A stretch of 64,000 bases of DNA from assembly GCA_004321885.1 (NCBI GenBank), contig SCQK01000014.1:95464-159463 (forward strand), given 5' to 3'. Shown in pieces: positions 5,284 through 57,711 of the stretch. A program made the position numbers and the translations under genes. The notes under the pieces are model-generated. The model worked only from the letters and a program-made list of their open reading frames with translations. It ran no database searches and was not told the origin of the DNA. This stretch comes from Patescibacteria group bacterium. GTDB taxonomy: Bacteria > Patescibacteriota > Patescibacteriia > Magasanikbacterales > GWA2-37-8. The first letter of the stretch is position 1. Each line of letters begins with the position of its first letter.

Positions 5284-5294
5284 TCGTCAATAGA

Positions 5295-8003: not shown

Positions 8004-8052
8004 TGTCATTCCAGCCCGCCTTTAGTCCCAGCGAAAGCTGGGATGGAATCCA
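8004..8052. repeat. Family-B repeat variant (TGTCATTCC-hairpin-GGAATCCA)
   Basis: TGTCATTCCAGCCCGCCTTTAGTCCCAGCGAAAGCTGGGATGGAATCCA. Confidence 0.7.
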
Positions 8053-9215: not shown

Positions 9216-9218
9216 CAG

Positions 9219-9252
9219 TCATTCCCCCGACTTAGTCGGGGGAATCCAGTCG
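9219..9252. repeat. Family-B repeat
   Basis: GTCATTCCCCCGACTTAGTCGGGGGAATCCAGTC. Confidence 0.85.
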
Positions 9253-10240: not shown

Positions 10241-10275
10241 GTCATTCCGGTCGCCTGCGGCGGCCGGAATCCAGT
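10241..10275. repeat. Family-B repeat
   Basis: GTCATTCCGGTCGCCTGCGGCGGCCGGAATCCAGT. Confidence 0.85.
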
Positions 10276-10353: not shown

Positions 10354-10383
10354 TGTCATTCCGGACTTGATCCGGAATCCAGC
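10354..10383. repeat. Family-B repeat just downstream of promoter 10322
   Basis: TGTCATTCCGGACTTGATCCGGAATCCAGC. Confidence 0.85.
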
Positions 10384-11273: not shown

Positions 11274-12155
11274 ATGGTTAAAGGTCACAAAGTGAAAAAT
11301 GAAAAAATCGATAAAAAAATAGCTTTTGGTTGGTATGGCGGTAAGTTTAGTCATCTTGACTGGCTTTTGCCGCTGTTGCCGGAAACCGATCATTTTTGTG
11401 AGCCGTTTGGTGGCTCTGCTGCCGTTATCATAAACAGAAATCCTTCTTTAATCGAAACATATAATGATTTAGATGGCGAGGTAGTTAATTTCTTCAGAGT
11501 ATTAAGGGAACATCCTAACGATCTTATAAGACAAATTGGGCTTACTCCATTTTCGAGGGAAGAATTCAAATATGCTATTGAACACGAAGATGATAAAAAT
11601 CTTTCAGATATTGAGAGGGCTAGGTCTTTTTTTATCCGCGCAAGGCAGGTTAGGACTGGACTTGCTCAAAAAGCTACTTCTGGTAGATGGGCAAATTGTA
11701 AATTAACTTCCAGAGCCGGAATGTCAGGTGCGGTCTCGAGGTGGTTGGGAAGTGTTGACGGGCTAACAGAGATTGCGGAAAGGCTTTTACGAATACAAAT
11801 TGAAAATGCTCCTGCAATTGAAGTTGTAAGGCGATATGATAGCCCACAGACCTTATTTTACTGTGATCCTCCGTATACACATGATTCTCGAGGTGATATA
11901 AATGCCTATAAATTTGAAATGGACAGGGATGCGCATGTCGAACTGGCCGAAACACTAAAACAGGTTAAGGGGTTAGTCGCTATATCGGGTTACGACTCTC
12001 CCCTAATGAACGAGCTGTATCAAGGATGGAAAAAAATCGCTGGGCCAGTAAAAAATGCAAATTCTATACAACAACCTAGACAAGAAATTTTATGGGTTAA
12101 TTATAATATTAATGATAAATCTTTATGGAAAAAGCAGCAAAGATCCTTGATATAA
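11274..12155 (+). CDS. Dam-family (D12 class) N6-adenine DNA methyltransferase
   Basis: N-terminal WYGGK...EPFGGSAAV (SAM-binding motif I) and catalytic DPPY (FYCDPPYTHDS). Confidence 0.85.
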   Translation: MVKGHKVKNEKIDKKIAFGWYGGKFSHLDWLLPLLPETDHFCEPFGGSAAVIINRNPSLIETYNDLDGEVVNFFRVLREHPNDLIRQIGLTPFSREEFKYAIEHEDDKNLSDIERARSFFIRARQVRTGLAQKATSGRWANCKLTSRAGMSGAVSRWLGSVDGLTEIAERLLRIQIENAPAIEVVRRYDSPQTLFYCDPPYTHDSRGDINAYKFEMDRDAHVELAETLKQVKGLVAISGYDSPLMNELYQGWKKIAGPVKNANSIQQPRQEILWVNYNINDKSLWKKQQRSLI

Positions 12156-13246
12156 TTTTGAAAAAAACTAATGGGCATCTAGAAAAACCTTTTATAAAAA
12201 ATAGGGAGATTTTGCGGAAAATAGAATTTATTTCTCATAATATTCAAAATCGAGCCGGCGTCCGCCTTATTATGTCTTGCTTACTGGCGAAACTTGACGA
12301 TCCAAAAGTTGATGTAAGAAAACCTTATACGGAGATTGGCAGTCGTGATAGTTTTTCGGGCAGAACATATGACGAGGCCTATGTCGGCAGTTTTATCACT
12401 AAACATCACTTGCCGTGTAATCCAACAACAGCGTTTTTGACGCCAGCTCTACGTAATAGAAATATTGTACTTACGCCAAAAGTAAATTTAGTCGGCAGGC
12501 CACCAGAAATTTATCAATACGTTCTCGACCTCCTAGAATTAGTATTTAAAGGATTTCTTGCCCCAGCCATTCTGCTTGCGGAAATAATGCGACAACTTGT
12601 TCTTTTACGAGATGAAAATCAAAAACGTATAAAATCTTTGTTAAAGAATCTCGGGAAAAATGGTAGTGTGCCTCTTTCGGGTGAAGACATAATAAAACTT
12701 ATTGAGCAACATTTAAATTGCAAAGGAGCCAGCAGACTTCCCGTACTTATCGTGGCCGCTGCTTACAACACTATTGGAAATTTCATCCAAGAAAAAGTAT
12801 TACCTATCTTTTCTCACAATTCTGCAGATAAACAAACTGGTGCGCTCGGCGATATACAAATTACGTTAATTAATGACGAGAATGTAGTAACTAGTTATGA
12901 GATGAAGATGAAGAAGGTCACAAAGGACGACATTGATATCGCTCTGCAAAAAATTTCGGGAGTTAAGTACAAAATAGATAATTATATTTTTATAACGACG
13001 GATATAATAGATGATTCGGTAAAAGAATATGCGAAATCACTTTATGAGCAAACCGGCGGAATAGAGATAGTTGTCTTAGATTGTATTAGTTTTCTTAGGC
13101 ATTTTATTCATTTATTCCACCGCTTCAGATTGCCATATCTTGAAGAGTATCAAAAGTTGGTGATGGGTGAAGCAGACAGCGCGGTCAGTCAGCCCCTTAA
13201 AGAGGCATTTCTTGCTCTTCGACAGGCAACAGAAAGCGCGAATTAA
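12125..13246 (+). CDS. Putative type II restriction endonuclease (PD-(D/E)xK) cognate to the Dam-like MTase
   Basis: Overlaps MTase stop (translational coupling). GD-x17-YEMKMK fits a D...ExK nuclease core. No family recognised by eye; assignment is by context. Confidence 0.45.
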   Translation: MEKAAKILDIILKKTNGHLEKPFIKNREILRKIEFISHNIQNRAGVRLIMSCLLAKLDDPKVDVRKPYTEIGSRDSFSGRTYDEAYVGSFITKHHLPCNPTTAFLTPALRNRNIVLTPKVNLVGRPPEIYQYVLDLLELVFKGFLAPAILLAEIMRQLVLLRDENQKRIKSLLKNLGKNGSVPLSGEDIIKLIEQHLNCKGASRLPVLIVAAAYNTIGNFIQEKVLPIFSHNSADKQTGALGDIQITLINDENVVTSYEMKMKKVTKDDIDIALQKISGVKYKIDNYIFITTDIIDDSVKEYAKSLYEQTGGIEIVVLDCISFLRHFIHLFHRFRLPYLEEYQKLVMGEADSAVSQPLKEAFLALRQATESAN

Positions 13247-13327
13247 TGCAATAAAATAGTAAAAATGCAACCTTTTTCGGTGTGCGACGTTATATTATTG
13301 GGAGCTAAATATGACGATTATTAAAAA

Positions 13328-13984
13328 GTGTTTATCTTTATGGATATTGAAGCCGAAAAAGAACAAATCGTGAAGGCCCAAAGTAATATCAAGGAGTTTG
13401 CGCCTTTATTTGATGAATATTACCCCCAAATACTTAAATATTTAATAGGGCGTATCCGCAGTGTGGAAATTGCCCAGGATATTGCATCTGTTACATTCTT
13501 GAAAGCCTTAGAGAATATAAAAAAATTTAACTGTCGGGGGATTAGCATATCATCGTGGCTGTACCGAATAGCTACGAACGAGGTCACTACATATTTTAGA
13601 AAAAATAAAACCCTTTCACTCGATGAGATAAGGGCATGTGAAAATTTTGATCCGCCCGCTATCGGCAACCCGTACATTGAAATTGTCCAGGCGCAGGAAA
13701 AAATTGAAAATGATAAAAAATTTTTGAATCTACAAAATGAGATTCTAAAATTACATATAAATTATCAAGAAGTCATAATGTTGCGATATTTCGAGAAAAA
13801 ACAAATAAATGAGATAGCAGAAATTTTAAATAAAAGCGAGGGGACGATTAAATCTCTCCTCCATCGAGGTTTGAAAAAATTAAAAAAAAATTTTCAACTA
13901 CACAACAGTGACGCCAGAACGCAACCTTTTCAAAATAAAAACGTTCTAAATATAGAACAGGTACTAGTACCCATAAAATTATGA
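13328..13984 (+). CDS. ECF-subfamily RNA polymerase sigma factor
   Basis: Region 2 (ISSWLYRIATNEV) and region 4 HTH (INEIAEILNKSEGTIKSLLHRGLKKLK). Confidence 0.8.
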   Translation: MFIFMDIEAEKEQIVKAQSNIKEFAPLFDEYYPQILKYLIGRIRSVEIAQDIASVTFLKALENIKKFNCRGISISSWLYRIATNEVTTYFRKNKTLSLDEIRACENFDPPAIGNPYIEIVQAQEKIENDKKFLNLQNEILKLHINYQEVIMLRYFEKKQINEIAEILNKSEGTIKSLLHRGLKKLKKNFQLHNSDARTQPFQNKNVLNIEQVLVPIKL

Positions 13985-14223
13985 ATGACCTACAGGAGTT
14001 AGAAAAAATGTTAGAGGAGATCGAGGTTCCGTCTGTGGACTTAAATATAAATAAGGAGTTGTTGAAGAGTTACCTATTTAGAAATGAGCGGGTTGAATTT
14101 GAGAGCAGCAAACAAGATAACTCCATATTTGCCCCGCAGTTTGAATTTTTACCTTGTCCGTCATTTACGTATGATTATTTAATTAATGATTTTAATTCAA
14201 CTACATATGTCCTTAGTTATTAA
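13981..14223 (+). CDS. Small hypothetical protein (80 aa), start overlaps sigma-factor stop (ATGA); possible anti-sigma/adaptor
   Basis: ATGA overlap with upstream sigma gene and 17-38 nt overlap with downstream hydrolase. No TM segment and no recognisable domain. Confidence 0.4.
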   Translation: MNDLQELEKMLEEIEVPSVDLNINKELLKSYLFRNERVEFESSKQDNSIFAPQFEFLPCPSFTYDYLINDFNSTTYVLSY

Positions 14224-15169
14224 TGTAACCACACCCGAAGGAATTGTGTTAGCAGCTGATAGTCGTCAAAGCTACCGCAACCAAAAAGGCGCAGCCCGTA
14301 TAGGCAGCGATAACGCTTCGAAACTGTTTAAATTAAACGACCGGATAGCTGTTGCAGCTACAGGCATGGCCTTTTTACCTGAAAAAGGAATGCTTAAAAA
14401 TATAAGTAAATTTATAGAACAATTTAAAAAAATTGAAATTGAAAAAATAGAAAATATATCAGTTAAGGAAACGGCAGAAAAAATTCATGAATATTTCAAA
14501 AGTATATACAAAGTAGAAGACCAGATAAGGGCAATTGAGCAGCAAATTACAAATGATATCGCAAAAAACGGGGGTAAAATATTGAGAACAGACGCTAAAA
14601 AAAATATAGTTATTGTAGAGTTTGAAGATGCAAATGGGAAAAAAGGTGTTGCCAACGTAGTTCTGGAGCCCTTGAATTTCATGGTGGCTGGTTTTAATAG
14701 CAATTTCGATTCGCACGAGGTTTACACGTGTAGAATACCGGGGGGGATAGAATTAAAAAGAAATAGTAGCGTGGATAATAAAGAGTATGGCGCCTCGTGG
14801 GAAGGGCAAAATGATGTGGTAGCGCGAATTGTCTTGGGTTTTGATCCTAGGATAGGGAATATAAAATTTGTACAAGAAGCAGCGGAAAAAATTGGGAAGG
14901 ATCAAATTAATGAACAGCTTAGAAATTTAGAATACGCAATACAATGGGGCACCATGACTTTGCAAGATGCTATCGACTTTTGTGTGTTAATTATAAAAAC
15001 AACCTCAGCCATTCAAAGATTTTCGGATGGCATTAAAGCTGATCCTGGTGCAATCCCTGGCGTGGGCGGCTCCATCGATGTGGTGGTCATCAGACCAGAA
15101 GAGGGGTTTAATTGGGTAAGTAAAAAGAAGTTATCTATCAATGAAAATTGTTCAGAAATAAATTTTTAA
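14186..15169 (+). CDS. Proteasome-beta/HslV-like Ntn threonine hydrolase (elongated, 327 aa)
   Basis: After a short propeptide (MILIQLHMSLVINV) the sequence TTPEGIVLAADSRQS...SKLFKLNDRIAVAATGMA matches the proteasome-beta N-terminal nucleophile Thr plus the Lys33 region. C-terminal GVGGSIDVVVIRPEEG matches the beta-subunit SGG...VxVI motif. About 100 aa inserted between. Confidence 0.65.
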   Translation: MILIQLHMSLVINVTTPEGIVLAADSRQSYRNQKGAARIGSDNASKLFKLNDRIAVAATGMAFLPEKGMLKNISKFIEQFKKIEIEKIENISVKETAEKIHEYFKSIYKVEDQIRAIEQQITNDIAKNGGKILRTDAKKNIVIVEFEDANGKKGVANVVLEPLNFMVAGFNSNFDSHEVYTCRIPGGIELKRNSSVDNKEYGASWEGQNDVVARIVLGFDPRIGNIKFVQEAAEKIGKDQINEQLRNLEYAIQWGTMTLQDAIDFCVLIIKTTSAIQRFSDGIKADPGAIPGVGGSIDVVVIRPEEGFNWVSKKKLSINENCSEINF

Positions 15170-15193
15170 TAAATTATTTTTAACTAATAGTTT

Positions 15194-15838
15194 ATGAAAA
15201 AACCTCTTTATATAATGCTCCATCACTCGGCTGTTTCATACGACAAAAATCCAGATCAATTTGATGCAAATAATAATTACCATAAAGCACAGTGGAATTT
15301 TAAAGGTTCCCTTGGTTTTTATCTTGGTTACAATTACGAAATATCTAAAACCGGCCTGACACGACAAGCCCGAGCAGACGGTGAAGTTACGGCAGCATGC
15401 TATCAAAAAGATATGAACGATGGTAGGTGTATACATATTTGTATGGATGGCCACTTCGATCAAGAAAAACCAACGCCAGAACAAATAGAGGCGTTAAGAA
15501 AATTGCTAAAACAAAAATTCGAGGAGCACAATATCAAAAGAGAGAACTTAATTTTTCATAGGGATTACGCCCCTAAAACCTGTCCGGGGTCTAATTTAGA
15601 CATAAAAAATATTCGCGATCTTGCCACACCGGAAGGCAATGAATTGTACGCAGCCGCATTGACGCTTATGAAAGAGAATAATTCACCAGCTATTTACTTT
15701 TTCGGTTTTGATAATATGTGGCACGGACTTGGGGATATGGATATTTTAAAATCATTAAAAGGAAACTATAATCCAGTAGAAATAATGAAAGTAGAAAATC
15801 TCCCTGATAATATTTCATTTTCAATAGGCAAACAATAA
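15194..15838 (+). CDS. N-acetylmuramoyl-L-alanine amidase (Amidase_2/PGRP fold, zinc-dependent)
   Basis: IMLHHSA ... HICMDGHFD ... HRDYAPKTCPG carries the His/His/Cys zinc ligands of the T7-lysozyme/PGRP family. Confidence 0.75.
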   Translation: MKKPLYIMLHHSAVSYDKNPDQFDANNNYHKAQWNFKGSLGFYLGYNYEISKTGLTRQARADGEVTAACYQKDMNDGRCIHICMDGHFDQEKPTPEQIEALRKLLKQKFEEHNIKRENLIFHRDYAPKTCPGSNLDIKNIRDLATPEGNELYAAALTLMKENNSPAIYFFGFDNMWHGLGDMDILKSLKGNYNPVEIMKVENLPDNISFSIGKQ

Positions 15839-15959
15839 AAAGCTGCGTTTCCGCCAAAGCCGAGCGAAGCTCGGTATCCCGCCGCAACAAGTAGCGTCGG
15901 GATGAAAAACTGGAAATCGTCATTCGTCGGAGATCCCTCCGCCCAAGGCGGGCAGGCAC

Positions 15960-16086
15960 CGCGGGCGGAAGGAAGGGGTGTGGGGAGGGAATTCCGCCCG
16001 CGCCCTAAAATTCGCCCAAATCCGTTCGTATCTTTTCATAAGTCCCGAGCAAAAGTAAAAATACTGGTAATATCCAGTATTTTTTG
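15960..16086. repeat. Right terminal inverted repeat of island
   Basis: See left IR. Confidence 0.85.
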
Positions 16087-18270: not shown

Positions 18271-19110
18271 ATGAAAAAAATCATTGTCTCTTTGCTCGTG
18301 CTGGGAATCGCGGTTTTGGGTTTTGTGTTGTTCAGGGAATTTAGAAAAAATTTCGGGCGCGTGGCCGGGCCCGCGGGACAGACCGGCGAAACCGCCGGGC
18401 CCGAGGCAGGGGCCTACAAAATTTCCGACGCCGCGCTTAAAGAAGACAGCGCGCGTTATGTTATCATCGCCAAGTATCCGCGCCTCTTGGGCTTGTCGCC
18501 TGCGGCCGACAAAAATTTCAATGACGCGATGTTGGCCTTAATCAATCAGAATGTCAGCGATTTTAAGAAAAATGTGGCCGAAACGCCCGACACGCAGGTA
18601 AACAGCAGTCTGGAAACCAACTTTGACATCGTGGAAGAAAATGAAAATTTTGTCAGCATTCTTTTGATTGTTGATTCGTACGTGGCAGGCGCGGCTCATC
18701 CCGCGCGCCGTCTGGCCAGCTTTAATTTTGATTTGGAAAAAGGCGCGGTGTTTGGGCTCAAAGATGTTTTCAAATCCGGCGCGCCATATTTGGAACGGCT
18801 GTCGCAATTCGCGCGCGCCGAGCTTTTAGAGTCCAACAAACAGGAGCCGTTTACCGACGAAGCCACCATCAACGCCGGCACCGAGCCGAAAGAGGAAAAC
18901 TTTCAGGTGATAAATTTTTCCGCGGCTGGCATTGCGATAGTTTTTAATGAATATCAGGTGGCGGCCTACGCGGCCGGGCCGCAAATGGTGGAGATTGATT
19001 ACGAAAGCGTGAAGGATATTTTGAACGAAGAAGGCCCGCTGGCGCTGTTTTTAGCCAAGACCGAGGAGGAAGCGGAGCCGTCGCTGGATTCAGGGTCAAG
19101 CCCGGAATGA
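18271..19110 (+). CDS. Membrane-anchored DUF4163/DUF3298-like (RsiV-like) domain protein
   Basis: N-terminal TM; YQVAAYAAGP and surrounding pattern typical of DUF3298. C-terminal residues SGSSPE plus stop TGA are encoded by a partial family-B repeat. Confidence 0.5.
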   Translation: MKKIIVSLLVLGIAVLGFVLFREFRKNFGRVAGPAGQTGETAGPEAGAYKISDAALKEDSARYVIIAKYPRLLGLSPAADKNFNDAMLALINQNVSDFKKNVAETPDTQVNSSLETNFDIVEENENFVSILLIVDSYVAGAAHPARRLASFNFDLEKGAVFGLKDVFKSGAPYLERLSQFARAELLESNKQEPFTDEATINAGTEPKEENFQVINFSAAGIAIVFNEYQVAAYAAGPQMVEIDYESVKDILNEEGPLALFLAKTEEEAEPSLDSGSSPE

Positions 19111-19139
19111 CAATAAAAATATTTTTTAATAAATAAACT

Positions 19140-19170
19140 GGATTTTCCCGACTTAGTCGGGGGAATGACA
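19140..19170. repeat. Family-B repeat 5 nt upstream of M4 peptidase start
   Basis: GGATTTTCCCGACTTAGTCGGGGGAATGACA; partial copy at 19096..19115 supplies the stop of the upstream gene. Confidence 0.85.
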
Positions 19171-23055: not shown

Positions 23056-23084
23056 TGGATTCCGGCTCGGGGGCCGGAATGACA
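23056..23084. repeat. Family-B repeat upstream of PAP2 gene
   Basis: TGGATTCCGGCTCGGGGGCCGGAATGACA. Confidence 0.85.
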
Positions 23085-23634: not shown

Positions 23635-23686
23635 ACCCCTCCCTTTAACCCTCCCCTTAATAAGGGGAGGGAGGGGTGGGGTTTGC
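23635..23686. repeat. Family-A hairpin repeat (intergenic)
   Basis: CCCTCCCCTTAATAAGGGGAGGG + AGGGGTGGGGTTTGC, then T-run. Confidence 0.85.
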
Positions 23687-27634: not shown

Positions 27635-27671
27635 CTGGATTCCGGTCGCCTGCGACGACCGGAATGACAAT
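27635..27671. repeat. Family-B repeat
   Basis: CTGGATTCCGGTCGCCTGCGACGACCGGAATGACAA. Confidence 0.85.
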
Positions 27672-31398: not shown

Positions 31399-31427
31399 TG
31401 TCATTCCCGCGAAAGCGGGAATCCAGC
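31399..31427. repeat. Family-B repeat upstream of SPFH gene
   Basis: TGTCATTCCCGCGAAAGCGGGAATCCAGC. Confidence 0.85.
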
Positions 31428-31431
31428 AAAT

Positions 31432-32004
31432 ATGTCCGCCGACTCATTGGACAAACTGATGTATTCGTTCGTGATGGAGGATGTTTTGAAAGGCATTTTT
31501 ATCACAGTGCCGCCCGGGTATGTGGCGTGCGTTTACGATTACGGCCGGGGAGTGCTGAAAAAAGTTTTGACTCCGGGTTTGCATTTGAAAATTCCGTTTT
31601 GGCAGAAGGCCAAATTGTTTAACACACAGACCTTGGAATACAGCATTTCGCGCAACTTTAATCCCGAGCACGAAAAGTCTTTGGGCGATATTCCCATCGC
31701 GGCCGTAACCAAAGACAGCCAGCGCGTGGGCGTGGAAGGCACAATTTTACTTCGCCTGGACGTGCACCAGATTCCCAGCATTTGGCAGACCATTGGCGAG
31801 GATTTTGTGGTCAAGATAGTGCGGCCCAGCATACGTAGCCGCATCCGCATGGTCTTTTCGCACTATGATTTTCAGGAAATTATCACGGTGAAGCGCGACG
31901 CCGTGGAAATGGAACTAAAAAACGAGCTTGAGCGCATCTTTTACGCGCGCGGCATTTACGTGGAGAATGTATTGCTCTCCGAGATTTCACAGATAAGGCA
32001 GTAA
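31432..32004 (+). CDS. SPFH/band-7 (stomatin/HflC-like) domain protein, short (190 aa), no obvious membrane anchor
   Basis: VPPGYVACVYDYGRGVLKKVLTPGLHLKIPFWQKAKLFNTQT... has the SPFH beta-sheet core. Ends right at family-B repeat 32005..32035; possibly truncated. Confidence 0.6.
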   Translation: MSADSLDKLMYSFVMEDVLKGIFITVPPGYVACVYDYGRGVLKKVLTPGLHLKIPFWQKAKLFNTQTLEYSISRNFNPEHEKSLGDIPIAAVTKDSQRVGVEGTILLRLDVHQIPSIWQTIGEDFVVKIVRPSIRSRIRMVFSHYDFQEIITVKRDAVEMELKNELERIFYARGIYVENVLLSEISQIRQ

Positions 32005-32035
32005 TGTCATTCTGGCTCGGGAGCCAGAATCCATC
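32005..32035. repeat. Family-B repeat at 3' end of SPFH gene
   Basis: TGTCATTCTGGCTCGGGAGCCAGAATCCATC. Confidence 0.85.
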
Positions 32036-33060: not shown

Positions 33061-33095
33061 GCTGGATTCCCCCGTACTTAGTCGGGGGAATGACA
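33061..33095. repeat. Family-B repeat in hrcA 5' UTR
   Basis: GCTGGATTCCCCCGTACTTAGTCGGGGGAATGACA. Confidence 0.85.
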
Positions 33096-34432: not shown

Positions 34433-34489
34433 TTCTCCCTTAATTAGGGGGAGAACGCCAAACAGTTCCCTCCCCTAAAAGGGGAGGGT
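34433..34489. repeat. Two family-A hairpins upstream of dnaK
   Basis: TTCTCCCTTAATTAGGGGGAGAA and CCCTCCCCTAAAAGGGGAGGG. Confidence 0.8.
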
Positions 34490-37050: not shown

Positions 37051-38151
37051 ATGGCAAAAGATTACTATAAAATACTGGGTATTGATAAAAACGCCTCGCC
37101 CGAGGAAATAAAAAAAGCTTTCAAAAAGCTGGCTTTGGAGCACCATCCGGACAGGCCGGGCGGCAATGAGGCGAAGTTCAAGGAAATAAACGAGGCCTAT
37201 CAGGTGCTGGGCGACGCGGAAAAACGCCAGCGTTACGACCAGTTTGGCGCGGACTTTGAACAGCAAGGCGGTTTTGGCGGCGCCAGCTGGGAGGATTTTA
37301 TGCGGGCCGCGCGCGGGCAAAACGGTTTTAGCAACGGCGGATTTTCATTTAACTTCGGGGACTTGGATTTGGGGGATATTTTCGGCGATGTGTTTGGCGC
37401 GGGCCGTTCACGCCGAGGAGGACGTGAGCGCGGCCAGGACATTCAAATTGACGCGCAAATTGATTTCAAAGAAGCGGCTTTTGGCGTGGAAAAAACTTTT
37501 TCTTTGCGCAAGAAAAGCCAGTGCGACGTGTGCGGCGGCAGTGGCGCCGAGCCGGGCAGTAAAATGGAAACCTGCAAGACCTGCGGGGGACAGGGGCAGG
37601 TGGTACGCCAGCAAAGCAGTTTTTTTGGCATGGTGCAGACAGTGGGCGCCTGTCCCGATTGCGGCGGCCGCGGGCAAAAGCCGGGTAAAAAATGCAAGCA
37701 TTGCGGCGGCTCGGGCGCGCTGGCTAAAACCAGCGATATAAATGTGAAAATTCCGGCCGGCATTGACGATGGCCAGGCCATACGGTTGGCGGGTTATGGC
37801 GAGGCGGGCGAACATGGCGGGCAGGCCGGTGATTTGTTTGTGCGGGTGCGCGTAAAGCCGCTCAAAGGTTTTGAACGCGACAGCGATGACGTCTACACCG
37901 AGAGCGAGATTAGTTTTGTTCAGGCCGCGCTAGGCGATAATATCAGCGTGGAAACATTGGACGGTTTGCTCACGATTGTGGTGCCGGCTGGCACCGAGCA
38001 CGGGCAAATGATACGACTCAAAGGCCGCGGGATAGAACGAATAAACCGCGGGGGCCGGGGAGACCATTTCGTAAAAATAAAAATCCGCGTGCCGAAAAAA
38101 TTAAGCCGCTCGGCGCGGAAGTTGTTAGATGATTTAAGAGGGGAATTGTAA
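37051..38151 (+). CDS. dnaJ: Molecular chaperone DnaJ
   Basis: J-domain DYYKILGI...HPD; G/F-rich linker; four CxxCxGxG zinc-finger repeats. Confidence 0.95.
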
Positions 38152-38157
38152 TAATCG

Positions 38158-38252
38158 CTGGCTCCATAGTTGCGAAGCACTATGGAGCTCAAATGTTGGT
38201 CAGCAATTCGGCTCCACAGCCCCGACTGGGTCGGGGACTATGGAGCCAGCCA
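38158..38252. repeat. Family-C REP-like hairpins (2 units) after dnaJ
   Basis: GGCTCCATAGTTGCGAAGCACTATGGAGC and GGCTCCACAGCCCCGACTGGGTCGGGGACTATGGAGCC. Confidence 0.85.
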
Positions 38253-38273
38253 TAGGATAACACTGGATTCCCC

Positions 38274-38295
38274 CGACTAAGTCGGGGGAATGACA
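38274..38295. repeat. Family-B repeat 2 nt upstream of ECF sigma start
   Basis: TGGATTCCCCCGACTAAGTCGGGGGAATGACA. Confidence 0.85.
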
Positions 38296-38297
38296 AC

Positions 38298-38795
38298 ATG
38301 AATAAGAAAAAATTTGAAAAATTTTACAGCGACAACATAGACAAAATTTACCGTTTTGTCTTTTTTCGCGTGGGCGGGGACAAAGACCTGGCCGAGGATT
38401 TAGTTTCGGAAGTTTTCATGAAGGCGTACAACAGCTTTGCGGTCTACGATGAAAACATCAGCAAGTCGGCCTGGCTGATTACCATCGCCCGCAACCACTT
38501 GGCCAATTACTGGCGCGATCGTAAACTGACCTCGCCTTTGCCAACGGGCGAAGACGGCGAGGAAAGCGAATCGGTCTGGCTGGATTCGGGCATCGTCAAA
38601 TTCAAGCAGGAAGAGAACGGCCGCCAGGTTTACGAACTGCTGGAAAAGCTGAATCCGGACGAAAAAGAGGTTGTAACCTTTCATTATTTATTCGGGTATA
38701 GTTACTCGGAAATCGCCCAAATGAGGGGCTCCAGCGAAGGAGCGGTCAAGGTGGCGGCCCATCGGGCGATAAAAAAGATGAGGGGGAGACTATGA
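38298..38795 (+). CDS. ECF-subfamily RNA polymerase sigma factor
   Basis: Region 2 DLVSEVFMKAYN...AWLITIARNHLANYWR; region 4 YSEIAQMRGSSEGAVKVAAHRAIKKMR. Confidence 0.85.
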   Translation: MNKKKFEKFYSDNIDKIYRFVFFRVGGDKDLAEDLVSEVFMKAYNSFAVYDENISKSAWLITIARNHLANYWRDRKLTSPLPTGEDGEESESVWLDSGIVKFKQEENGRQVYELLEKLNPDEKEVVTFHYLFGYSYSEIAQMRGSSEGAVKVAAHRAIKKMRGRL

Positions 38796-38798
38796 ATA

Positions 38799-38842
38799 CC
38801 CCTCCCGCGCCCTCCCCTTAAAAAAGGGGAGGGGCAAACTAA
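38799..38842. repeat. Family-A hairpin repeat between ECF sigma and anti-sigma-like gene
   Basis: CCTCCCCTTAAAAAAGGGGAGG. Confidence 0.8.
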
Positions 38843-38844
38843 AT

Positions 38845-39540
38845 ATGAATCTCAAAGTTAGGTACAATTTATGGAAAGAACAGCGCCGGATGTCGCCGAA
38901 TTTTAAGTTTAAGCGCGCGCTTTTGGCGCGTGTGCTGGATTCTCGCCTGCGCGGGAATGACAGCGAGGACTGGCGCGGCAAACACCCTATTAGATTTTTT
39001 GCCTATTTCACCCACTTGCGCTGGGGCGTGGTTATGGCCAGTGTTTTGTTGTTGGCTTTGCTGGCCACCGGCGCATACGCCTACAACAGCGACGAAGTTA
39101 CCGAGGGTACTGTTTTGTATCCGGTAAAACAAAAGCTGGAAGAAGTGGAGGAACTGACCAAGCGCACGCCCGAAGCCAAGGCGGATTTTTATCTGAAACA
39201 GATTAAGCGGCGCGAAGCCGAGGAGGCGGCGCTGGAGCGCCGGCGCGCCAGGATTGAAAAAGCTAAAAATCGGCTGGACATGCTGGAAAAAAACATAGAA
39301 GCGTCCGAGGAAAAAGCCGAGCGCGTGCAGACCCAGCTTGAAGAAGTAAATAAAATATTGAGCGGCAAAAACAGCGCGCAGAACAAAGAATTGCGCCAGC
39401 GCGTGCAGGCGATTTTGGAAGCCAAAAAAATAAAAAGAGAGCGCGAATTGGACAAAAAAGTGGAAATGATACGGCGGAAAGCGGAAATGATTGACAAGTT
39501 ATACGCCAGCTTGGAAGAGGAAATGGAAAAAGAAGAATAA
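38845..39540 (+). CDS. Putative anti-sigma factor: single-TM protein with long charged coiled coil
   Basis: Directly follows the ECF sigma; TM MASVLLLALLATGAYAY; rest is K/E/R-rich helical. Assignment by context. Confidence 0.4.
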   Translation: MNLKVRYNLWKEQRRMSPNFKFKRALLARVLDSRLRGNDSEDWRGKHPIRFFAYFTHLRWGVVMASVLLLALLATGAYAYNSDEVTEGTVLYPVKQKLEEVEELTKRTPEAKADFYLKQIKRREAEEAALERRRARIEKAKNRLDMLEKNIEASEEKAERVQTQLEEVNKILSGKNSAQNKELRQRVQAILEAKKIKRERELDKKVEMIRRKAEMIDKLYASLEEEMEKEE

Positions 39541-44907: not shown

Positions 44908-44931
44908 CGTTTTCTTACGATGGTTCGTAAA

Positions 44932-44969
44932 TCCCTCCCCTATAAGAGGAGGGAGAGGGTGGGGTTCGC
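44932..44969. repeat. Family-A hairpin repeat
   Basis: TCCCTCCCCTATAAGAGGAGGGAGAGGGTGGGGTTCGC. Confidence 0.8.
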
Positions 44970-47122: not shown

Positions 47123-48748
47123 ATGCGCACGAAATACATTTTTGTCATAGGAGGAGTTTTGTCGGGAGTGGGAAAGGGGATAACAACGGCTTCCATCGGC
47201 CGCATTTTCAAAAATCGAGGTTTTAATGTTTCGGCCGTAAAAATAGACCCATACATCAACGTTGACGCCGGCACCATGAATCCAGTGGAGCATGGCGAGG
47301 TCTTTGTCACCGAAGACGGCGACGAAACCGACCAGGATATCGGCAATTACGAGCGTTTTTTGGACGAAAATATTTTGTCGGTAAATTACATGACTACCGG
47401 GCGAGTATATTTGAGCGTGATTCAAAAAGAGCGCAGTATGGGGTATAAAGGGCACTGCGTGCAGGTGGTGCCGCACGTGCCCATGGAAGTGATTGAGCGC
47501 ATTAAAACCGCGGCCAAGAAAGCCGCGGCCGAAATAATGGTGGTTGAAGTGGGCGGCACCGTGGGCGAATACGAAAATATCCTGTATCTGGAAGCGGCGC
47601 GTATGATGAAGTTGGACAATCCGGACGATGTGGCGTTTGTGCTGGTGAGCTATTTGCCCGTGCCCGGTCATTTGGGCGAGATGAAGACCAAACCCACCCA
47701 GCACGCGGCTCGCGCCCTAAACAACTGCGGCATTCAGCCGGATTTTATCATCGCCCGCGGCAAGTACGAGCTGGACAAGCCCCGTCGCGAGAAGCTGGCC
47801 TTTTTTTGCTGGCTGCCCTCGCGAGAATGCGTGATTTCCGTGCCCGACATGCCCACCACTTATGAAATTCCTTTGCTTTTGGAAAAAAATAAATTTTGCC
47901 AGCTGCTGGCCAAGAAATTAAGCATTGATTTGGGTGACAAGTACGACACGCAATGGGACAAGTTCATCGCTAAAATGAAAACCGCGGAGCGCAAGATAAA
48001 AATCGCGGTGGTCGGCAAGTATTTTTCCACCGGCGATTTTACTTTGGCCGATTCTTACACCTCGGTGATTCACGCGGTCAAGCACGCCTGCTGGAAAAAT
48101 GGCGTGGTGGCGGACATGACTTGGATTGACAGCGAGGACTATGAAAAAAATCCGAAAAAAGTGAAGGAGTTGGCGAAGTATGGCGCGTTAATAGTGCCGG
48201 GCGGGTTTGGCACGCGCGGCATAGAGGGGATAATTACGGCCATCCGCTGGGCGCGAGAAAATAATCTGCCGTATTTGGGTTTGTGCTATGGCATGCAGTT
48301 GGCGAGCGTGGAGTTCGCGCGCAATGTGCTCGGCTACGCCGACGCCCATACCGTGGAATGTGCCTCGGAAAGCAAGCATTTGATTATCAACATCAACCTC
48401 ACACAGAAAGAAAACGTAAAAAATAACCGCTATGGCGGCACCATGCGGCTGGGCGCGTACAATTGCGTTTTGAAAAAGGGGAGCGCGGCGCAAAAATTGT
48501 ACGGCGAAGAAAAAATCAGCGAGCGCCACCGCCATCGCTATGAGTTTGACAACAAATTCCGCGCCGAGATGGAAGCCAAAGGGATGGAAGTGGTGGGTAT
48601 AAATCCCGAGTCGGATTTGGTGGAAATAATCCAGTTCAAAAATCATCCTTTTTTCGTGGGCACGCAATTTCATCCGGAATTCAAATCCCGCCCCTTGCGC
48701 GCCCACCCGCTGTTTGACGGTCTAATCAAAGCGGCGCTGGGGAAATAG
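47123..48748 (+). CDS. pyrG: CTP synthase
   Basis: KYIFVIGGVLSGVGKGITTASIG N-terminus, C-terminal GATase with LGLCYGMQL. Confidence 0.96.
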   Translation: MRTKYIFVIGGVLSGVGKGITTASIGRIFKNRGFNVSAVKIDPYINVDAGTMNPVEHGEVFVTEDGDETDQDIGNYERFLDENILSVNYMTTGRVYLSVIQKERSMGYKGHCVQVVPHVPMEVIERIKTAAKKAAAEIMVVEVGGTVGEYENILYLEAARMMKLDNPDDVAFVLVSYLPVPGHLGEMKTKPTQHAARALNNCGIQPDFIIARGKYELDKPRREKLAFFCWLPSRECVISVPDMPTTYEIPLLLEKNKFCQLLAKKLSIDLGDKYDTQWDKFIAKMKTAERKIKIAVVGKYFSTGDFTLADSYTSVIHAVKHACWKNGVVADMTWIDSEDYEKNPKKVKELAKYGALIVPGGFGTRGIEGIITAIRWARENNLPYLGLCYGMQLASVEFARNVLGYADAHTVECASESKHLIININLTQKENVKNNRYGGTMRLGAYNCVLKKGSAAQKLYGEEKISERHRHRYEFDNKFRAEMEAKGMEVVGINPESDLVEIIQFKNHPFFVGTQFHPEFKSRPLRAHPLFDGLIKAALGK

Positions 48749-48764
48749 GCGCCGGGATGGGTCG

Positions 48765-48872
48765 CTGGCTCCACAGTCCCCGACAAAGTCGGGGCTGTGG
48801 AGCCGAAATGCTGGCCAACATTATGGCTCCACAGCCTCGGTCGCCTGCGGCGACCTCGGACTATGGAGCCAG
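48765..48872. repeat. REP-like hairpin array (family C), upstream flank of RAYT
   Basis: GGCTCCACAGTCCCCGACAAAGTCGGGGCTGTGGAGCC and GGCTCCACAGCC-TCGGTCGCCTGCGGCGACC-TCGGACTATGGAGCC; nested palindromes. Confidence 0.8.
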
Positions 48873-48913
48873 CCGATGAACAGTCAGCGATAAAAATATT
48901 CTTCTATAAACTT

Positions 48914-49459
48914 ATGCCGACGCCGCGGATAAATGAAGCGTATGAAAATTTGACGCATTTTTTGACGATAACGGTAGTAGAATGGATTGATATTTTTACA
49001 AAGAGAGAATATTTTGAGGCGATAGCAGAGAGTTTAAAATTTTGCAGAGAAAATAAAGGATTGTTGCTCTACGAATATGTGATAATGACCAATCATTTGC
49101 ATTTAATCGTAAGGGCCAAAGAAGGTTTCAAATTATCTCAAATAATCAGTGATTTTAAAAAATACACCGCAAGAGAAATCTGTAAATTATTGGCAACAGA
49201 TAATCGCAGGTATATTTTAAATCTGCTCAAAAATAGTTTTTCCAAAAAAGAGGGTTATCAAAATCAACTTTGGCAAAGGGAAAATTACGCCGAGCCGATG
49301 ACTTCCGGTAAATTTTTGGATGAAAAAATAACCTATATTTACAATAATCCAGTAAAAAAGGGTTTTGTGGCAAAGTCGGAGGACTGGCTTTATTCATCGG
49401 CAAGAAATAGGATATTGGGTGACCATTCAATATTGCGAGTGGATGATTTGGAAGGTTAG
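48914..49459 (+). CDS. REP-associated tyrosine transposase (RAYT; IS200/Y1 HUH-family)
   Basis: HUH motif in YVIMTNHLHLIVRA; catalytic Tyr candidate in FKKYTAREI; size about 180 aa; flanked on both sides by REP-like hairpin arrays. Start could be 48863 (inside the REP). Confidence 0.65.
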   Translation: MPTPRINEAYENLTHFLTITVVEWIDIFTKREYFEAIAESLKFCRENKGLLLYEYVIMTNHLHLIVRAKEGFKLSQIISDFKKYTAREICKLLATDNRRYILNLLKNSFSKKEGYQNQLWQRENYAEPMTSGKFLDEKITYIYNNPVKKGFVAKSEDWLYSSARNRILGDHSILRVDDLEG

Positions 49460-49690
49460 CTCGCTGGCTGCACGCTGGCTCCATAGTTTTTCGCGAAGCG
49501 AAAACTGTGGAGCCAGAATGCCAGCACTATGGCTCCACAGCCCCGACTTTGTCGGGGACTATGGAGCCAGCGACAACGCCAAGATGCCGGACAGCACTAT
49601 GGCTCCACAGCCCCGACTTTGTCGGGGACTATGGAGCCAGCGATAACAAAATGCCAGCACTGCGGCAGCGATTGCTATGGAGCCAGCGAC
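49460..49690. repeat. REP-like hairpin array (family C, 5-6 units), downstream flank of RAYT
   Basis: Repeated GGCTCCA(C/T)AGCCCCGACTTTGTCGGGGACTATGGAGCC units, with variant inner loops (e.g. TTTTTCGCGAAGCGAAAA). Confidence 0.85.
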
Positions 49691-49691
49691 T

Positions 49692-51008
49692 TTATCTCCC
49701 TTTTAGCCGTATCACAACGTTTATCGTGCGCAGAAGAATCGCGAGGTCCAAGAGTGGCCCGCGGTTTTTGATGTAATATAAATCGTATTCCAATTTGCGC
49801 AGGTTTTCTTCCAGGGTGCCGTAGTAGTCGCGGCGCAGTTGAGCCCAGCCGGTCATGCCCGGCTTGATTAAATGGCGCAAATTATAATACGGCATTTGCC
49901 CTGTTAGCTGCGCCACAAACTCCGGCCGTTCCGGGCGTGGACCAATCACCGACATTTCTCCCTTCAAGATGTTTATAAACTGCGGCACTTCGTCCAGCCG
50001 GGTTTTGCGCAAAATTTTACCCACGCCCGTTACTCGCGGGTCGTCCGTGGCGGCAAAACGCGGGCCTTCGGTTTCGGCGCTGCCGTCGGCTGAGAGCGCT
50101 TTCATAGTGCGGTATTTATAAACGGTAAATTCGCCGCCCAGCCGCCCCACCCGTTTTTGCTTGAAAAATATGGGCCCGGGCGAAGATAGCTTTACGCCGA
50201 GCGCCACCAGCGGAAATGAAATTATAAAAATCGCGCCGATAACAAAAGCCGCCAGATAGTCAACCAAAATCCTAAATCGGTCCCAGATTTTTTTCTGCTG
50301 TTCCTGCAGGTGTGAAATAAACCAGGACTCGGAAAAAGTAAAGGGCGGGATGCGGCCAAACACCGCGGCGTAAAAATCAGCCAGCTCCATCACGCTTGTC
50401 TGCGCGAACAGGCTGTCGTACAGTTCTTTCAGCAGTTCGTTGTTTTTTTCCAGGCCCGGCGCCAGCACAATGATGTCGGCGCGCTCGTTGGATTGTTTTT
50501 GTATAGTCCTAAATCCTCGTTGTGGTTCTTTATTAAAAATATCTATTAACTCTTGCACCTCGGGCGTATAACCCATGAAAATAACTTTTTGCGCTAAAAA
50601 TTTCACGGAAACAAATTGGTTGTAGAGGTATCGCCACAAATACATCAGCCCCACGCCGAGCGCGAAATTCAGGCCCAAAATGGTTTTTGGGGTAACTAAA
50701 TTGCGGTAAGAGGCAAAGTAAAAATAAATGAAACCGGCGAATAGCCAAATGGCGCCGGCGATGGCGATTTGAATGAAGTATCCTTTGCTGTTTTTGATTT
50801 TGAACAAATCATAAAGCCCGACAATGAAGTTTATGACCGCGGCCAGCAAGAACAAAAAAGTCATGGGCCTTAGCAAAATCAAAAGTTGTTCGCCGGGAAA
50901 AGACAGGTAACGCAAAAAAATGGCAAAATACAGGCCGATGTACAGGCAGGCCAGGTCGCCGGCTAGCAGGGTGAGTTGTTTAACGCGGTACATAACAGCA
51001 ATTTCCAA
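49692..51008 (-). CDS. Polyprenyl-phosphate glycosyl-1-phosphate transferase (bacterial sugar transferase, WbaP/CpsE-like)
   Basis: C-terminal FKQKRVGRLGGEFTVYKYRTM...DEVPQFINILKGEMSVIGPRPERPEF...YYIKNRGPLLDLAILLRT; N-terminal TM bundle. Confidence 0.9.
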   Translation of the reverse strand: MEIAVMYRVKQLTLLAGDLACLYIGLYFAIFLRYLSFPGEQLLILLRPMTFLFLLAAVINFIVGLYDLFKIKNSKGYFIQIAIAGAIWLFAGFIYFYFASYRNLVTPKTILGLNFALGVGLMYLWRYLYNQFVSVKFLAQKVIFMGYTPEVQELIDIFNKEPQRGFRTIQKQSNERADIIVLAPGLEKNNELLKELYDSLFAQTSVMELADFYAAVFGRIPPFTFSESWFISHLQEQQKKIWDRFRILVDYLAAFVIGAIFIISFPLVALGVKLSSPGPIFFKQKRVGRLGGEFTVYKYRTMKALSADGSAETEGPRFAATDDPRVTGVGKILRKTRLDEVPQFINILKGEMSVIGPRPERPEFVAQLTGQMPYYNLRHLIKPGMTGWAQLRRDYYGTLEENLRKLEYDLYYIKNRGPLLDLAILLRTINVVIRLKGR

Positions 51009-55142: not shown

Positions 55143-55511
55143 ATGTTGATACAAATTTTTCTGGTTATCTTCTTCGTTTTCGCCATGGTGAAAGTGATCG
55201 GGCGATGGCGCGGAGGAGAGTTAAGCGCTCGCGCGGCGGTTTTGTGGATTTTGTTTTGGCTGGCTGGCGTCGTAGTCGTGATTTTGCCCCACAGCACGTC
55301 ATACTTCGCCAATTTGTTGGGCGTGGGGCGCGGCGTTGATTTGGCTGTTTATTTGTCCGTGGCGCTATTGTTTTTCGCGGTGTTTAGATTGACAGTAAGA
55401 ATAGAGCGGTTGAATAAAGACATAACGAAGTTGACGAGGAGGACGGCGCTAGAAGAAAAAGAATTACCCCTCTCTAACTCTCCCCTTATAAAGGGGAGAG
55501 AGAACCTATGA
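55143..55511 (+). CDS. Small membrane protein (DUF2304-like, commonly paired with GT2)
   Basis: 3 TM helices; the C-terminal 10 aa are encoded by a family-A repeat. Confidence 0.5.
   Translation: MLIQIFLVIFFVFAMVKVIGRWRGGELSARAAVLWILFWLAGVVVVILPHSTSYFANLLGVGRGVDLAVYLSVALLFFAVFRLTVRIERLNKDITKLTRRTALEEKELPLSNSPLIKGRENL
55466..55506. repeat. Family-A hairpin encoding C-terminus of DUF2304-like ORF
   Basis: CCCCTCTCTAACTCTCCCCTTATAAAGGGGAGAGAGAACC. Confidence 0.8.
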
Positions 55512-56731
55512 AAATAGCTCACGTTATTTCAACGTTTCCGCCGCGAATCGGCGGAATGGGAAAAGTGTGTTTTGAAGAGGCGAAGGAATTGGCCAAGCGC
55601 GGGCACGATGTGACCGTGTTTACTTTGAGGTATGCGGATACCCCCTCCTCTGTCCCCCCCCTAAGAGGGGGAGGAATAAATGTGGTGCGAATGTGGCCGG
55701 TGGTGAGGGCAGGCGACGCGGGTTGGGCGCCGCAATTATTTTGGAAGTTGAAAAATTTTGACATCGTTCATTTACACTATCCGTTTTACGGCGGGGCGCA
55801 TTGCGTGTTGTTGGCCCGGCTTTTTCGGAAGCAAAAATATGTGCTCACGTATCACATGGACGCTCGGCCCGCAGGATTGTTAAAAAAATTTTTTCAAAAA
55901 ATTTACGATTTTATTTTCGCGAAAGCGATTTTGAGGAACGCGGAGAAAATGATTGTGATGGATAGGAAGTATTTTGAGGCCAGCACAAATACGACCGTTG
56001 GTTCCATAGTTCCCGACTCAGTCCGGACTGTGGAACCCAATGCCGGCACTTTGGCTCCACAGCCCCGACGTAAAGTCGGGGACTATGGAGCCAGCGTGAT
56101 AGAAATCGCGCCGGGCGTGGATGCGGAGATCTACCAGCCGTCAGGTGGCTGGCCTCAAGGGGGCCACTTCGGGGCCGGGAAAAAAACAATTTTGTTCGCG
56201 GCCAATCCCATGCCGTTGAAGCGGTTGGATTTGTTACTGAAGGCGTTGCGGTTGATGAACGAAGATGTTTCGCTTTTAGTGGTGGGAGGCGGTTACGCGC
56301 TTGAGGATTACAAAAAAATGGCCGAGGAGCTGGGGATAAAAAACAAAGTGGTTTTCGCCGGCCGGTGCGACAGCGAACAAAAAATGGCCGAGTATTATAA
56401 CTCCGCTTCTTGTCTGGCCATACCATCGCAATCCGAATCGTTTTCTTTGTCAGCGATTGAAGCAATGGCTTGCGGTTGCCCGGTGGTGGCGCGTGATATG
56501 CCGGCTATGGCCGGACGCGTGACACACGGAGTTGATGGTTGGCTGGTAAACAGCGATAAGCCCGAGGATTGGGCGCGCGTTCTTCGCGAAGCTGTGGGAC
56601 TTACCGCGGAAGAGCGCGAGCGCATAGGCGCGGCGGGCAGAAAAAAAGTCGTGGAAAATTATGATTGGAATAGACATGTGGATGAATTGGAGAAAGTGTA
56701 CAGTATGGATTCCGGCTCAAGGCCGGAATGA
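55508..56731 (+). CDS. GT4-family glycosyltransferase with two in-frame repeat insertions
   Basis: ESFSLSAIEAMACGCPVVA is the GT4 E-x7-E region. Family-A repeat (55640..55677) encodes DTPSSVPPLRGGG; family-C REP pair (56000..56096) encodes ...SIVPDSVRTVEPNAGTLAPQPRRKVGDYGAS... Confidence 0.8.
   Translation: MKIAHVISTFPPRIGGMGKVCFEEAKELAKRGHDVTVFTLRYADTPSSVPPLRGGGINVVRMWPVVRAGDAGWAPQLFWKLKNFDIVHLHYPFYGGAHCVLLARLFRKQKYVLTYHMDARPAGLLKKFFQKIYDFIFAKAILRNAEKMIVMDRKYFEASTNTTVGSIVPDSVRTVEPNAGTLAPQPRRKVGDYGASVIEIAPGVDAEIYQPSGGWPQGGHFGAGKKTILFAANPMPLKRLDLLLKALRLMNEDVSLLVVGGGYALEDYKKMAEELGIKNKVVFAGRCDSEQKMAEYYNSASCLAIPSQSESFSLSAIEAMACGCPVVARDMPAMAGRVTHGVDGWLVNSDKPEDWARVLREAVGLTAEERERIGAAGRKKVVENYDWNRHVDELEKVYSMDSGSRPE
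55640..55677. repeat. Family-A hairpin inserted in-frame in GT4 gene
   Basis: CCCCCTCCTCTGTCCCCCCCTAAGAGGGGGAGG. Confidence 0.8.
56000..56096. repeat. Family-C REP-like hairpins (2 units) inserted in-frame in GT4 gene
   Basis: GGTTCCATAGTTCCCGACTCAGTCCGGACTGTGGAACC and GGCTCCACAGCCCCGACGTAAAGTCGGGGACTATGGAGCC. Confidence 0.85.
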
Positions 56732-56733
56732 CA
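56706..56733. repeat. Family-B repeat providing the stop (TGA) of GT4 and the start (ATG) of MTase
   Basis: TGGATTCCGGCTCAAGGCCGGAATGACA; ATGA within GGAATGACA. Confidence 0.85.
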
Positions 56734-57679: not shown

Positions 57680-57711
57680 TGGATTCCCCCGACTAAGTCG
57701 GGGGAATGACA
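57680..57711. repeat. Family-B repeat
   Basis: TGGATTCCCCCGACTAAGTCGGGGGAATGACA. Confidence 0.85.

Follow-up and report, generated by a model that had tools for sequence, protein, structure and literature searches.

A REP-associated tyrosine transposase gene bracketed by inverted copies of its presumptive REP in a Patescibacteria bacterium

Most of what is known of REP-associated tyrosine transposases (RAYTs), and of the repetitive extragenic palindromic sequences (REPs) that accompany them, comes from work on Proteobacteria, Cyanobacteria and Bacteroidetes. In the REPtron of Escherichia coli K-12 (TnpAREP/RayT with REPs and bacterial interspersed mosaic elements, BIMEs; PDB 4ER8; PMC3333891, PMC3479197), a single-domain HUH/Y1 nuclease with a C-terminal extension carries its catalytic tyrosine in a Y-I-x-x-N-P helix together with an asparagine that is a metal ligand, and is flanked by inverted imperfect palindromes with a mismatch or bulge in the stem, which are also dispersed as inverted doublets. 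Here we analyse a locus with the same organisation at positions 48765-49690 of a 64,000-nt stretch of DNA (the window, to which all coordinates refer unless a locus is named) from a Patescibacteria group bacterium (assembly GCA_004321885.1, contig SCQK01000014.1, positions 95,464 to 159,463), a member of the candidate phyla radiation (CPR). Very probably this locus is a REPtron: a RAYT gene lies between inverted copies of its cognate REP, which the enzyme presumably spreads. Our search of the full-text literature found no description of RAYT/REP systems in Patescibacteria, and the locus thus extends the known system to the CPR.

Among described enzymes, the RAYT of the window appears closest to TnpAY1 subclass 2.6 (Quentin et al., 2018, PMC6006769), which corresponds to RAYT Group 5 (Bertels et al., 2017, PMC5581495) and is found mostly in Bacteroidetes; the placement is by motifs. 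Four features point to it: firstly, a length of 181 aa, as compared to ~179 aa in the group; secondly, the group motifs NH[LIV]H, WQ and YIH[QN]NP, represented here by NHLH, W120-Q121 and YIYNNP, the third residue of the last being Y or H across homologues; thirdly, a C-terminal extension with a Ser-Ser pair, here S161-S162, of which S162 is invariant and S161 is present in at least 90% of homologues; fourthly, a stretch of ~22 residues (83-104) that finds no match in 4ER8. A tblastn search of plasmids returned distant matches only, to Bacteroidota and other RAYT-like genes, the nearest in the plasmid collection being Bacteroidota RAYTs at 38-44% identity (Bernardetia, 44%); the same search of phage records gave no match. 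Unlike the members of this group, the enzyme has a patescibacterial host, and whereas the group was described with 'atypical secondary structures' (PMC6006769), the REP here is a well-defined doublet with a foot that is conserved down to ~50% RAYT identity.

Three further systems bear on the locus. In the REPIN-RAYT system of Pseudomonas (Bertels & Rainey, 2011, PMC3116915), two REPs are joined as an inverted doublet with a short spacer (a REPIN) that can form one long hairpin, and the RAYT is flanked by such doublets, as it is here; the RAYT group and the REP sequence are different. Intragenic REPs and the Rickettsia palindromic elements (RPEs) of R. conorii (Di Nocera et al., 2013, PMC3733652) are in-frame palindromes, often dimers, that encode 20-30 aa and lie in intact genes, including tRNA synthetase and cell-envelope genes. 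Finally, the IS200/IS605 insertion sequences (TnpA; IS608, ISDra2) share with RAYTs the fold, the chemistry and subterminal hairpins recognised on single-stranded DNA.

We began from an initial annotation, made by reading the letters alone, which had interpreted a 181-aa open reading frame (ORF) with an HUH motif as a RAYT, and its surroundings as the established architecture of a RAYT flanked by its REPs. The observation is real, and profile, fold and comparative evidence support both parts of this interpretation. The ORF runs on the forward strand from an ATG at 48914 to a TAG at 49457-49459 (a longer, 220-aa ORF with a GTG start merely reads through the left-hand repeat). Its product scores 97.1 bits against the NCBIfam model for REP-associated tyrosine transposases (NF047646, REP_Tyr_transpos; cut-off 80), matches Pfam Y1_Tnp (PF01797; 35.6 versus a cut-off of 23), a check that the annotation had named beforehand, and fails the IS200/IS605 model NF033573 (29.6 bits versus a cut-off of 55). 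When a profile of 26 homologues was compared with the PDB, the sole match was E. coli TnpAREP (4ER8), to which the protein is only ~20% identical. An AlphaFold (AF2) model (predicted local distance difference test, pLDDT, 83.9) has an RRM-like HUH fold nearest to TnpAREP: in a Foldseek search its best PDB match was 4ER8 (E 1.4e-7, TM 0.63-0.69), with IS200/IS605 TnpAs next. A 100% identical NCBI protein carries the name 'transposase [Patescibacteria group bacterium]', and hundreds of homologues of ~181 aa and 58-77% identity come from Patescibacteria metagenome-assembled genomes (MAGs) and metagenomes, some of them already called RayT by the Joint Genome Institute (JGI). By its profile matches and modelled fold, then, the ORF encodes a RAYT of the TnpAREP type, with a single HUH/Y1 nuclease domain.

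The putative active site is likewise that of TnpAREP. The HUH motif, H61-L62-H63 (nt 49094-49102), aligns with H59/H61 of the E. coli enzyme, and alignment of YIYNNPVKKG on DYIYINPVKHG of 4ER8 equates Y141 (nt 49334-49336) with Y115 and N145 with N119, the metal ligand; Y115 and N119 are named active-site residues of E. coli TnpAREP (PMC3479197). H61, H63 and N145 are invariant among the 26 homologues and Y141 is at least 90% conserved, and we predict Y141 to be the catalytic tyrosine. The initial annotation had assigned this role to the tyrosine of KKYTAREI (Y84), an assignment that we had to abandon, since Y84 is H or F in most homologues and does not align with the E. coli catalytic tyrosine. 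Y100 was also ruled out: it is invariant, but lies in a ~22-residue clade-specific insertion (83-104) without counterpart in 4ER8.

The gene is bracketed by copies of an imperfect palindrome, which we call family C to tell it from two other palindrome families of the window, A and B. To the left lies a doublet (48761-48877; -45 kcal/mol, z -8.7; single hairpins z -4.9 to -7.6) whose two units, L1 (48767-48804, T-bulge orientation, perfect arms) and L2 (48825-48870, C·A orientation, with its apex replaced by GGTCGCC-TGC-GGCGACC), are separated by a 20-nt spacer with the palindromic centre TGCTGG/CCA. To the right, a duplicate of the 5' REP foot (CTCGCTGGCTGCA, 11-13 nt, 49460-49472, + strand) directly follows the RAYT stop codon and leads into a second doublet (49469-49575, 16-nt spacer, fold z -12.9), composed of R1 (49477-49514, T·G orientation, apex TTTTCGC-GAA-GCGAAAA) and R2 (49531-49568, C·A orientation, apex CCCCGAC-TTT-GTCGGGG). 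Beyond it, on the + strand, lie R3 (49584-49646, hairpin 49601-49638), which is a tandem duplicate of R2 with a period of 70 nt, and R4 (49647-49690), a truncated unit that keeps the 5' flank AAAATGCCAGCACT and the 3' arm CTATGGAGCC-AGCGAC and has lost its 5' arm and apex. R2 and R3 are 98% identical over 56 nt, so the right-hand array has partly grown by local duplication and not by transposition. Of the 2-3 units first counted on the left, two are complete; the 5-6 counted on the right were slightly generous, there being three complete units, a truncated one and the foot duplicate. We also considered whether the right-hand array is CRISPR-like or a tandem repeat and dropped this reading: its units are palindromes in inverted orientation, and tandem copies are limited to R2 and R3.

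The same REP occurs at two other places in the window, as had been noticed from the letters. An intergenic doublet (38152-38255; units 38160-38189, with the short apex TGC-GAA-GCA, and 38210-38247) lies between dnaJ (37051-38151) and a sigma-factor gene (38298-38795) and is followed by a family-B palindrome at 38264-38296; an intragenic doublet (55996-56096; units 56000-56037, with arms GGTTCC/GGAACC, and 56053-56092) lies within the ORF of a family-4 glycosyltransferase (GT4). The 10-nt arm GGCTCCAYAG has 16 exact matches in the window as compared to 0.06 expected from shuffles, and an nhmmer profile of the unit recovered exactly nine complete units and the truncated one, at four places (38152-38255, 48761-48877, 49469-49690 and 55992-56099). 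Every unit is a strong single-stranded DNA hairpin on either strand (z -4.9 to -7.6); the T·G strand is the more stable of the two, by 0.9-1.7 kcal/mol over the strand that carries C·A. The four doublets are head-to-head inverted pairs with 15-20 nt spacers around the palindromic centre TGCTGG/CCAGCA, and fold at -30 to -45 kcal/mol (z -6 to -12.9); these inverted pairs are REPINs.

To place the REP in a broader context, we compared loci across Patescibacteria. A scan for the two REP arms in one genome per GTDB species returned at least 116 loci, many of them from Parcubacteria/Paceibacteria, Falkow-, Magasanik-, Morani-, Kuenen-, Doudna-, Peri/Peregrini- and Saccharibacteria MAGs; a blastn search of the window against these loci gave nothing at 1e-10. 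A second scan, centred on the RAYT gene, yielded 74 loci on metagenome contigs, in 37 of which the RAYT is at least ~59% identical to that of the window, and in ~31 of these 37 the same REP lies ~10-120 nt from the gene. Where one unit stands on each side, the T·G unit is upstream and the C·A unit downstream in 11 of 11 loci, and the five GTDB loci, among those listed, in which a RAYT homologue sits beside the hairpin (L069, L048, L012, L112 and L028) have the same bracket; the RAYT gene thus occupies the position of a REPIN spacer. The remaining RAYT-REP loci, the window included, have whole doublets on one or both sides. Beside RAYTs of 50-58% identity, variants are found that keep GYT-GGCTCCA...TGGAGCC and are altered at stem positions 8-10 and in the apex, and beside more distant RAYTs the flanking palindromes are unrelated. 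The REP therefore changes as the RAYT diverges, as one would expect of an enzyme and a repeat that co-evolve.

Two Nitrospinota-labelled MAGs are among the REP loci listed, and MAGs labelled Nitrospinia/Nitrospinota (OFTM173: L008, L011, L033, L055, L074, L082 and L115; also L046 and L095) hold many CPR-type REP copies, which could reflect horizontal transfer or the binning or taxonomic mislabelling of genomes from a small-cell fraction.

Aligned on the T·G strand, 150 unique units gave a consensus with a well-defined anatomy: G (93%)-Y-T (71%) in positions -3 to -1, the 5' arm GGCTCCATAG, an unpaired T (97%), a CCC...GGG apex, the 3' arm CTGTGGAGCC, and N4-TGC, with T at 83%, G at 79% and C at 68% in positions +5 to +7. 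The foot, GGCTCCAYAG/CTRTGGAGCC, contains the T·G wobble and the unpaired T, and G-Y-T lies outward of it and TGC inward; at stem position 8, 174 of ~238 units have the T·G / C·A pair. The E. coli REP differs in two respects: its stem has a 4-base internal bulge, whereas the 10-bp foot stem here has one wobble and the unpaired T, and in place of a 5' GTAG the units here have G-Y-T beside the foot and TGC 4 nt past the other side. No GTAG-type form of the conserved 5' GT/tetranucleotide guide that the initial annotation had anticipated is present. In one locus (L135; RAYT at 4001-4537, 66% identical), the flanking variant REP has the foot GGTTCAAYAG and a long nested apex, GCCTGCCTGCGCAGGCAGG, and is another large hairpin module seated in a REP apex.

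The REP also enters genes without closing their frame. The GT4 ORF (55508-56731), annotated by NCBI as a 407-aa glycosyltransferase, is open throughout the doublet at 55996-56096, which encodes approximately residues 163-197 (..VGSIVPDSVRTVEPNAGTLAPQPRRKVGDYGAS..). This segment is absent from all 17 aligned orthologues, most of which are 365-384 aa long (a few are longer, with insertions of their own elsewhere), and the interval between FEAS and VIEI comprises 37 residues in the window protein as compared to ~10 in the orthologues. The insertion lies between the Pfam N-domain (14-152) and C-domain (223-379), both intact, and in an AF2 model residues 162-194 have a pLDDT below 50 while the rest is confident. 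With borders of insufficient sharpness, and a nearest orthologue of only 55% identity, the insertion does not define a target site. Elsewhere, ~12% of the exact REP units in the fetched loci lie within long open frames. Pfam domains continue across in-frame family-C units in a valyl-tRNA synthetase (ValRS; L085 2487-5429, - strand), a Mur ligase (L026 6124-7707, +), a BacA/UppP protein (L112 3220-4116, -) and a family-2 glycosyltransferase (GT2; L070 2296-3561, +), and in a reverse transcriptase gene (L009 1903-3231, -) the unit sits a little upstream of the domain match; the encoded peptides in such CPR genes include GSTALRGLWSQ, WLHSPDRAVEP and GSIVP...DYGA. These data bear out the suggestion, made from the window alone, that REPs are behind some in-frame insertions. 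In-frame REP dimers that encode 20-30 aa are known from other bacteria (PMC3733652, PMC6006769), but those carry GTAG or CGTC tags, or are RPEs without a known transposase, whereas the repeat here is the cognate REP of an adjacent RAYT.

Two observations stand beside these. Family-C units or doublets are also in frame in a giant surface protein and in a transporter, encoded at the CPR loci L066 and L043. Several of the GT4 orthologues (P0129, P0130, P0166, P0168, P0180 and P0203 in alignment A2) have long low-complexity insertions of their own elsewhere, e.g. ..SPLERGKG.. and ..LHPPEHPLGRPPRGGISRR.., which look like translated palindromic repeats of other families.

A number of points weigh against a REPtron of the kind known from Proteobacteria. 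Firstly, the RAYT gene has 34.6% GC and a GC content at third codon positions (GC3) of 36%, as compared to a GC3 of 57-65% in neighbouring genes, a deficit that fits horizontal spread better than the proteobacterial picture of a domesticated, vertically inherited RAYT; secondly, the REP copies of the window have diverged, with differing apexes and substituted arms, and the sole near-identical pair is the tandem duplicate, so that there is no sign of recent transposition; thirdly, we saw neither a duplicated target site nor a conserved target at any of the four doublets of the window; fourthly, the consensus of 150 units contains no GTAG, GT[AG]G or CGTC tag, and since E. coli TnpAREP needs GTAG, its recognition rules are not simply transferable; fifthly, the copy numbers of REP and RAYT are those of the 64-kb window. 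The low GC recurs elsewhere, the RAYT gene lying 1 to 14 points below its flanks in 14 other loci (L117-L172; 8-14 points in most), and suggests horizontal spread or a family-specific codon bias. Unlike the REPIN-RAYT system of Pseudomonas, the present one combines a strong RAYT GC3 deficit with near-identical REP feet in many class-level lineages, which argues against purely vertical descent.

These properties raise the question of whether the locus is an autonomous IS200-like insertion sequence, whose ends would be the hairpins and whose solo ends or miniature inverted-repeat (MITE) derivatives would be the dispersed doublets, moving horizontally within the CPR and not domesticated as a RAYT with REPINs. 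Such an element would account for the tight bracketing of the gene by inverted hairpins (10-60 nt) in many loci, for the RAYT GC and GC3 being well under those of the host in every locus checked, and for the identity of 60-77% between RAYTs of different CPR classes, as compared to 51-55% for the best homologue of the neighbouring GT4. It fits poorly with the protein, which passes the RAYT model and falls short of the IS200/IS605 one, and with the arrangement of the repeats: the end hairpins of IS200/IS605 elements are on the same strand, whereas the flanking units here are mutual reverse complements; no tnpB is present; REP doublets without the gene outnumber the gene in the window (two elsewhere versus one); and the RAYT, a single ORF, has one copy in the 64 kb. 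We consider an insertion sequence of this type improbable, and retain the REPtron.

That the hairpins are instead structures selected by the host, such as RNA stabilisers, terminators or protein-binding DNA sites, to which the proximity of the RAYT is secondary, seems to us very unlikely. The T·G (U·G in RNA) wobble is kept in most units, which by the reasoning of Di Nocera et al. (PMC3733652) is a hint of RNA function, and the right-hand array lies between convergent genes. Against this, no T-tract follows the hairpins, and a promoter and terminator scan of 48600-49900 was uninformative, with one terminator site versus 1.8 expected. Rfam at its gathering threshold found two tRNAs only and no REP family, and two sub-threshold miRNA matches in the REP region are due to chance; the REP is not a described RNA family. 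Moreover, units occur within coding regions, the bracketing of the RAYT gene by its REP is conserved between loci, and the repeat changes as the RAYT diverges.

The window holds two further families of palindromes. Family B consists of TGGATTCC, a variable apex hairpin and GGAATGAC; its 15 copies carry at least nine distinct apexes (8005-8052, 9218-9248, 10241-10273, 10355-10381, 19085-19111, 19139-19169, 23056-23083, 27636-27668, 31400-31425, 32006-32033, 33063-33094, 38264-38294, 38936-38961, 56706-56732 and 57680-57710). Other CPR loci frequently contain it, mostly in the form TGGATTCCCGC-YTYC-GCGGGAATGAC, and it may resemble the dRS3 repeats of Neisseria (ATTCCC-N8-GGGAAT). The TGA within GGAATGAC terminates both the GT4 gene (stop codon 56729-56731) and the gene at 18271-19110, the ORFs at 56728 and 57706 have their first start codon in the ATG of the same motif, and the copy at 38936 is in frame within the ORF 38845-39540 (..LDSRLRGNDS..). 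Family A is the palindrome CCCTCCCC-TTAWAA-GGGGAGGG, with copies at 3604-3640, 5294-5315, 23636-23681, 34467-34488, 38797-38833, 44931-44963, 55465-55501 and 55639-55675; the last of these is in frame in GT4 (..TPSSVPPLRGGG..), at a low-confidence loop of the AF2 model (residues 47-51). With a copy of family A, the REP doublet and an end in family B, the GT4 gene thus bears insertions or ends from all three families. The window, of ~50% GC, also contains a low-GC stretch (35-38%) at 12001-16000.

Families B and C share apexes. Unit L2 carries GGTCGCCTGCGGCGACC, 16 of whose 17 bases match the family-B copies at 10249 and 27644 (0.00 expected), so that the modular inner loop proposed by the initial annotation holds. 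Of the apex GGTCGCC-TGC-GRCGRCC there are two copies in B and one in C, and of CCCCGAC-N3-GTCGGGG four in each; both are far above chance, and neither was found in the window outside B or C units. This sharing is real. It was not found in any other locus (each at most 8 kb), and we raise the possibility that hairpin tops were exchanged by strand switching or gene conversion.

The annotation had gone further and supposed that one transposase might serve both families, through their nested apex hairpins. Beyond the two shared apex cores we found no support for this, and it is highly improbable: the feet of B (TGGATTCC/GGAATGAC) and C are unrelated and recognition by the E. coli enzyme runs through the foot and the 5' bases and not through the apex (PMC3479197), which makes a shared transposase unlikely; the 15 B copies have at least nine apexes; apex sharing was found in the window only, the other loci spanning up to 8 kb each; the units detected beside the RAYT here and in ~31 other loci are all of family C, in a scan that used the C pattern only; no B units were seen in the flanks of 19 related RAYT loci, B beside RAYT genes not having been searched for directly; and no transposase gene in the window is bracketed by B units. 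The gene at 31432-32004, which lies between two minus-orientated B units, was considered as a B transposase and rejected, as it encodes an SPFH/Band-7 protein.

Together, these results lead us back to the REPtron, for which a working model can be drawn. The data above show the protein family, its fold and active-site residues, the anatomy of the repeat, its bracketing of the RAYT gene in many related loci, its variation with RAYT divergence and the in-frame insertions; how the enzyme catalyses, which strand it recognises, where it cleaves and whether the system still moves are inferred, by analogy with E. coli TnpAREP. Two REP units joined head to head, with their TGC sides facing, form a REPIN of ~100 nt. 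The RAYT would bind the REP hairpin folded on single-stranded DNA, reading the foot, its mismatch or bulge (the wobble and the unpaired T) and the adjacent conserved bases, and would cleave nearby through Y141, with a metal held by H61, H63 and N145. Rejoining or transfer of the strand would then place REPINs at new sites. Copies that arrive in tolerant gene loops with the frame kept may persist as peptide insertions, such as the GT4 linker, and the right-hand array was further enlarged by the 70-nt tandem duplication. The general picture of how REPtrons work is left unchanged by this locus.

A broader scenario is offered more tentatively, and we think it doubtful as a whole: that one RAYT clade with a near-invariant, GTAG-less foot has spread across class-level lineages of the CPR, partly horizontally, to judge by the GC3 deficit in every locus; that its REP doublets are a recurrent source of in-frame insertions (ValRS, Mur ligase, UppP, glycosyltransferases); and that apex modules of two unrelated palindrome families have been exchanged within one genome. 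If true, this exchange would imply a templated 'apex-swapping', for example by strand switching between hairpins.

We regard the locus as of moderate interest, for the breadth over which the REP foot is conserved in the CPR, for a REP that lacks the usual tag, and for its recurrent in-frame insertions. It provides a REP with clear recognition features, namely the wobble, the unpaired T and the G-Y-T and TGC flanks in place of GTAG. It also shows in concrete terms how certain odd peptide insertions of CPR proteins can arise, which is relevant to the annotation and structure prediction of these reduced genomes.

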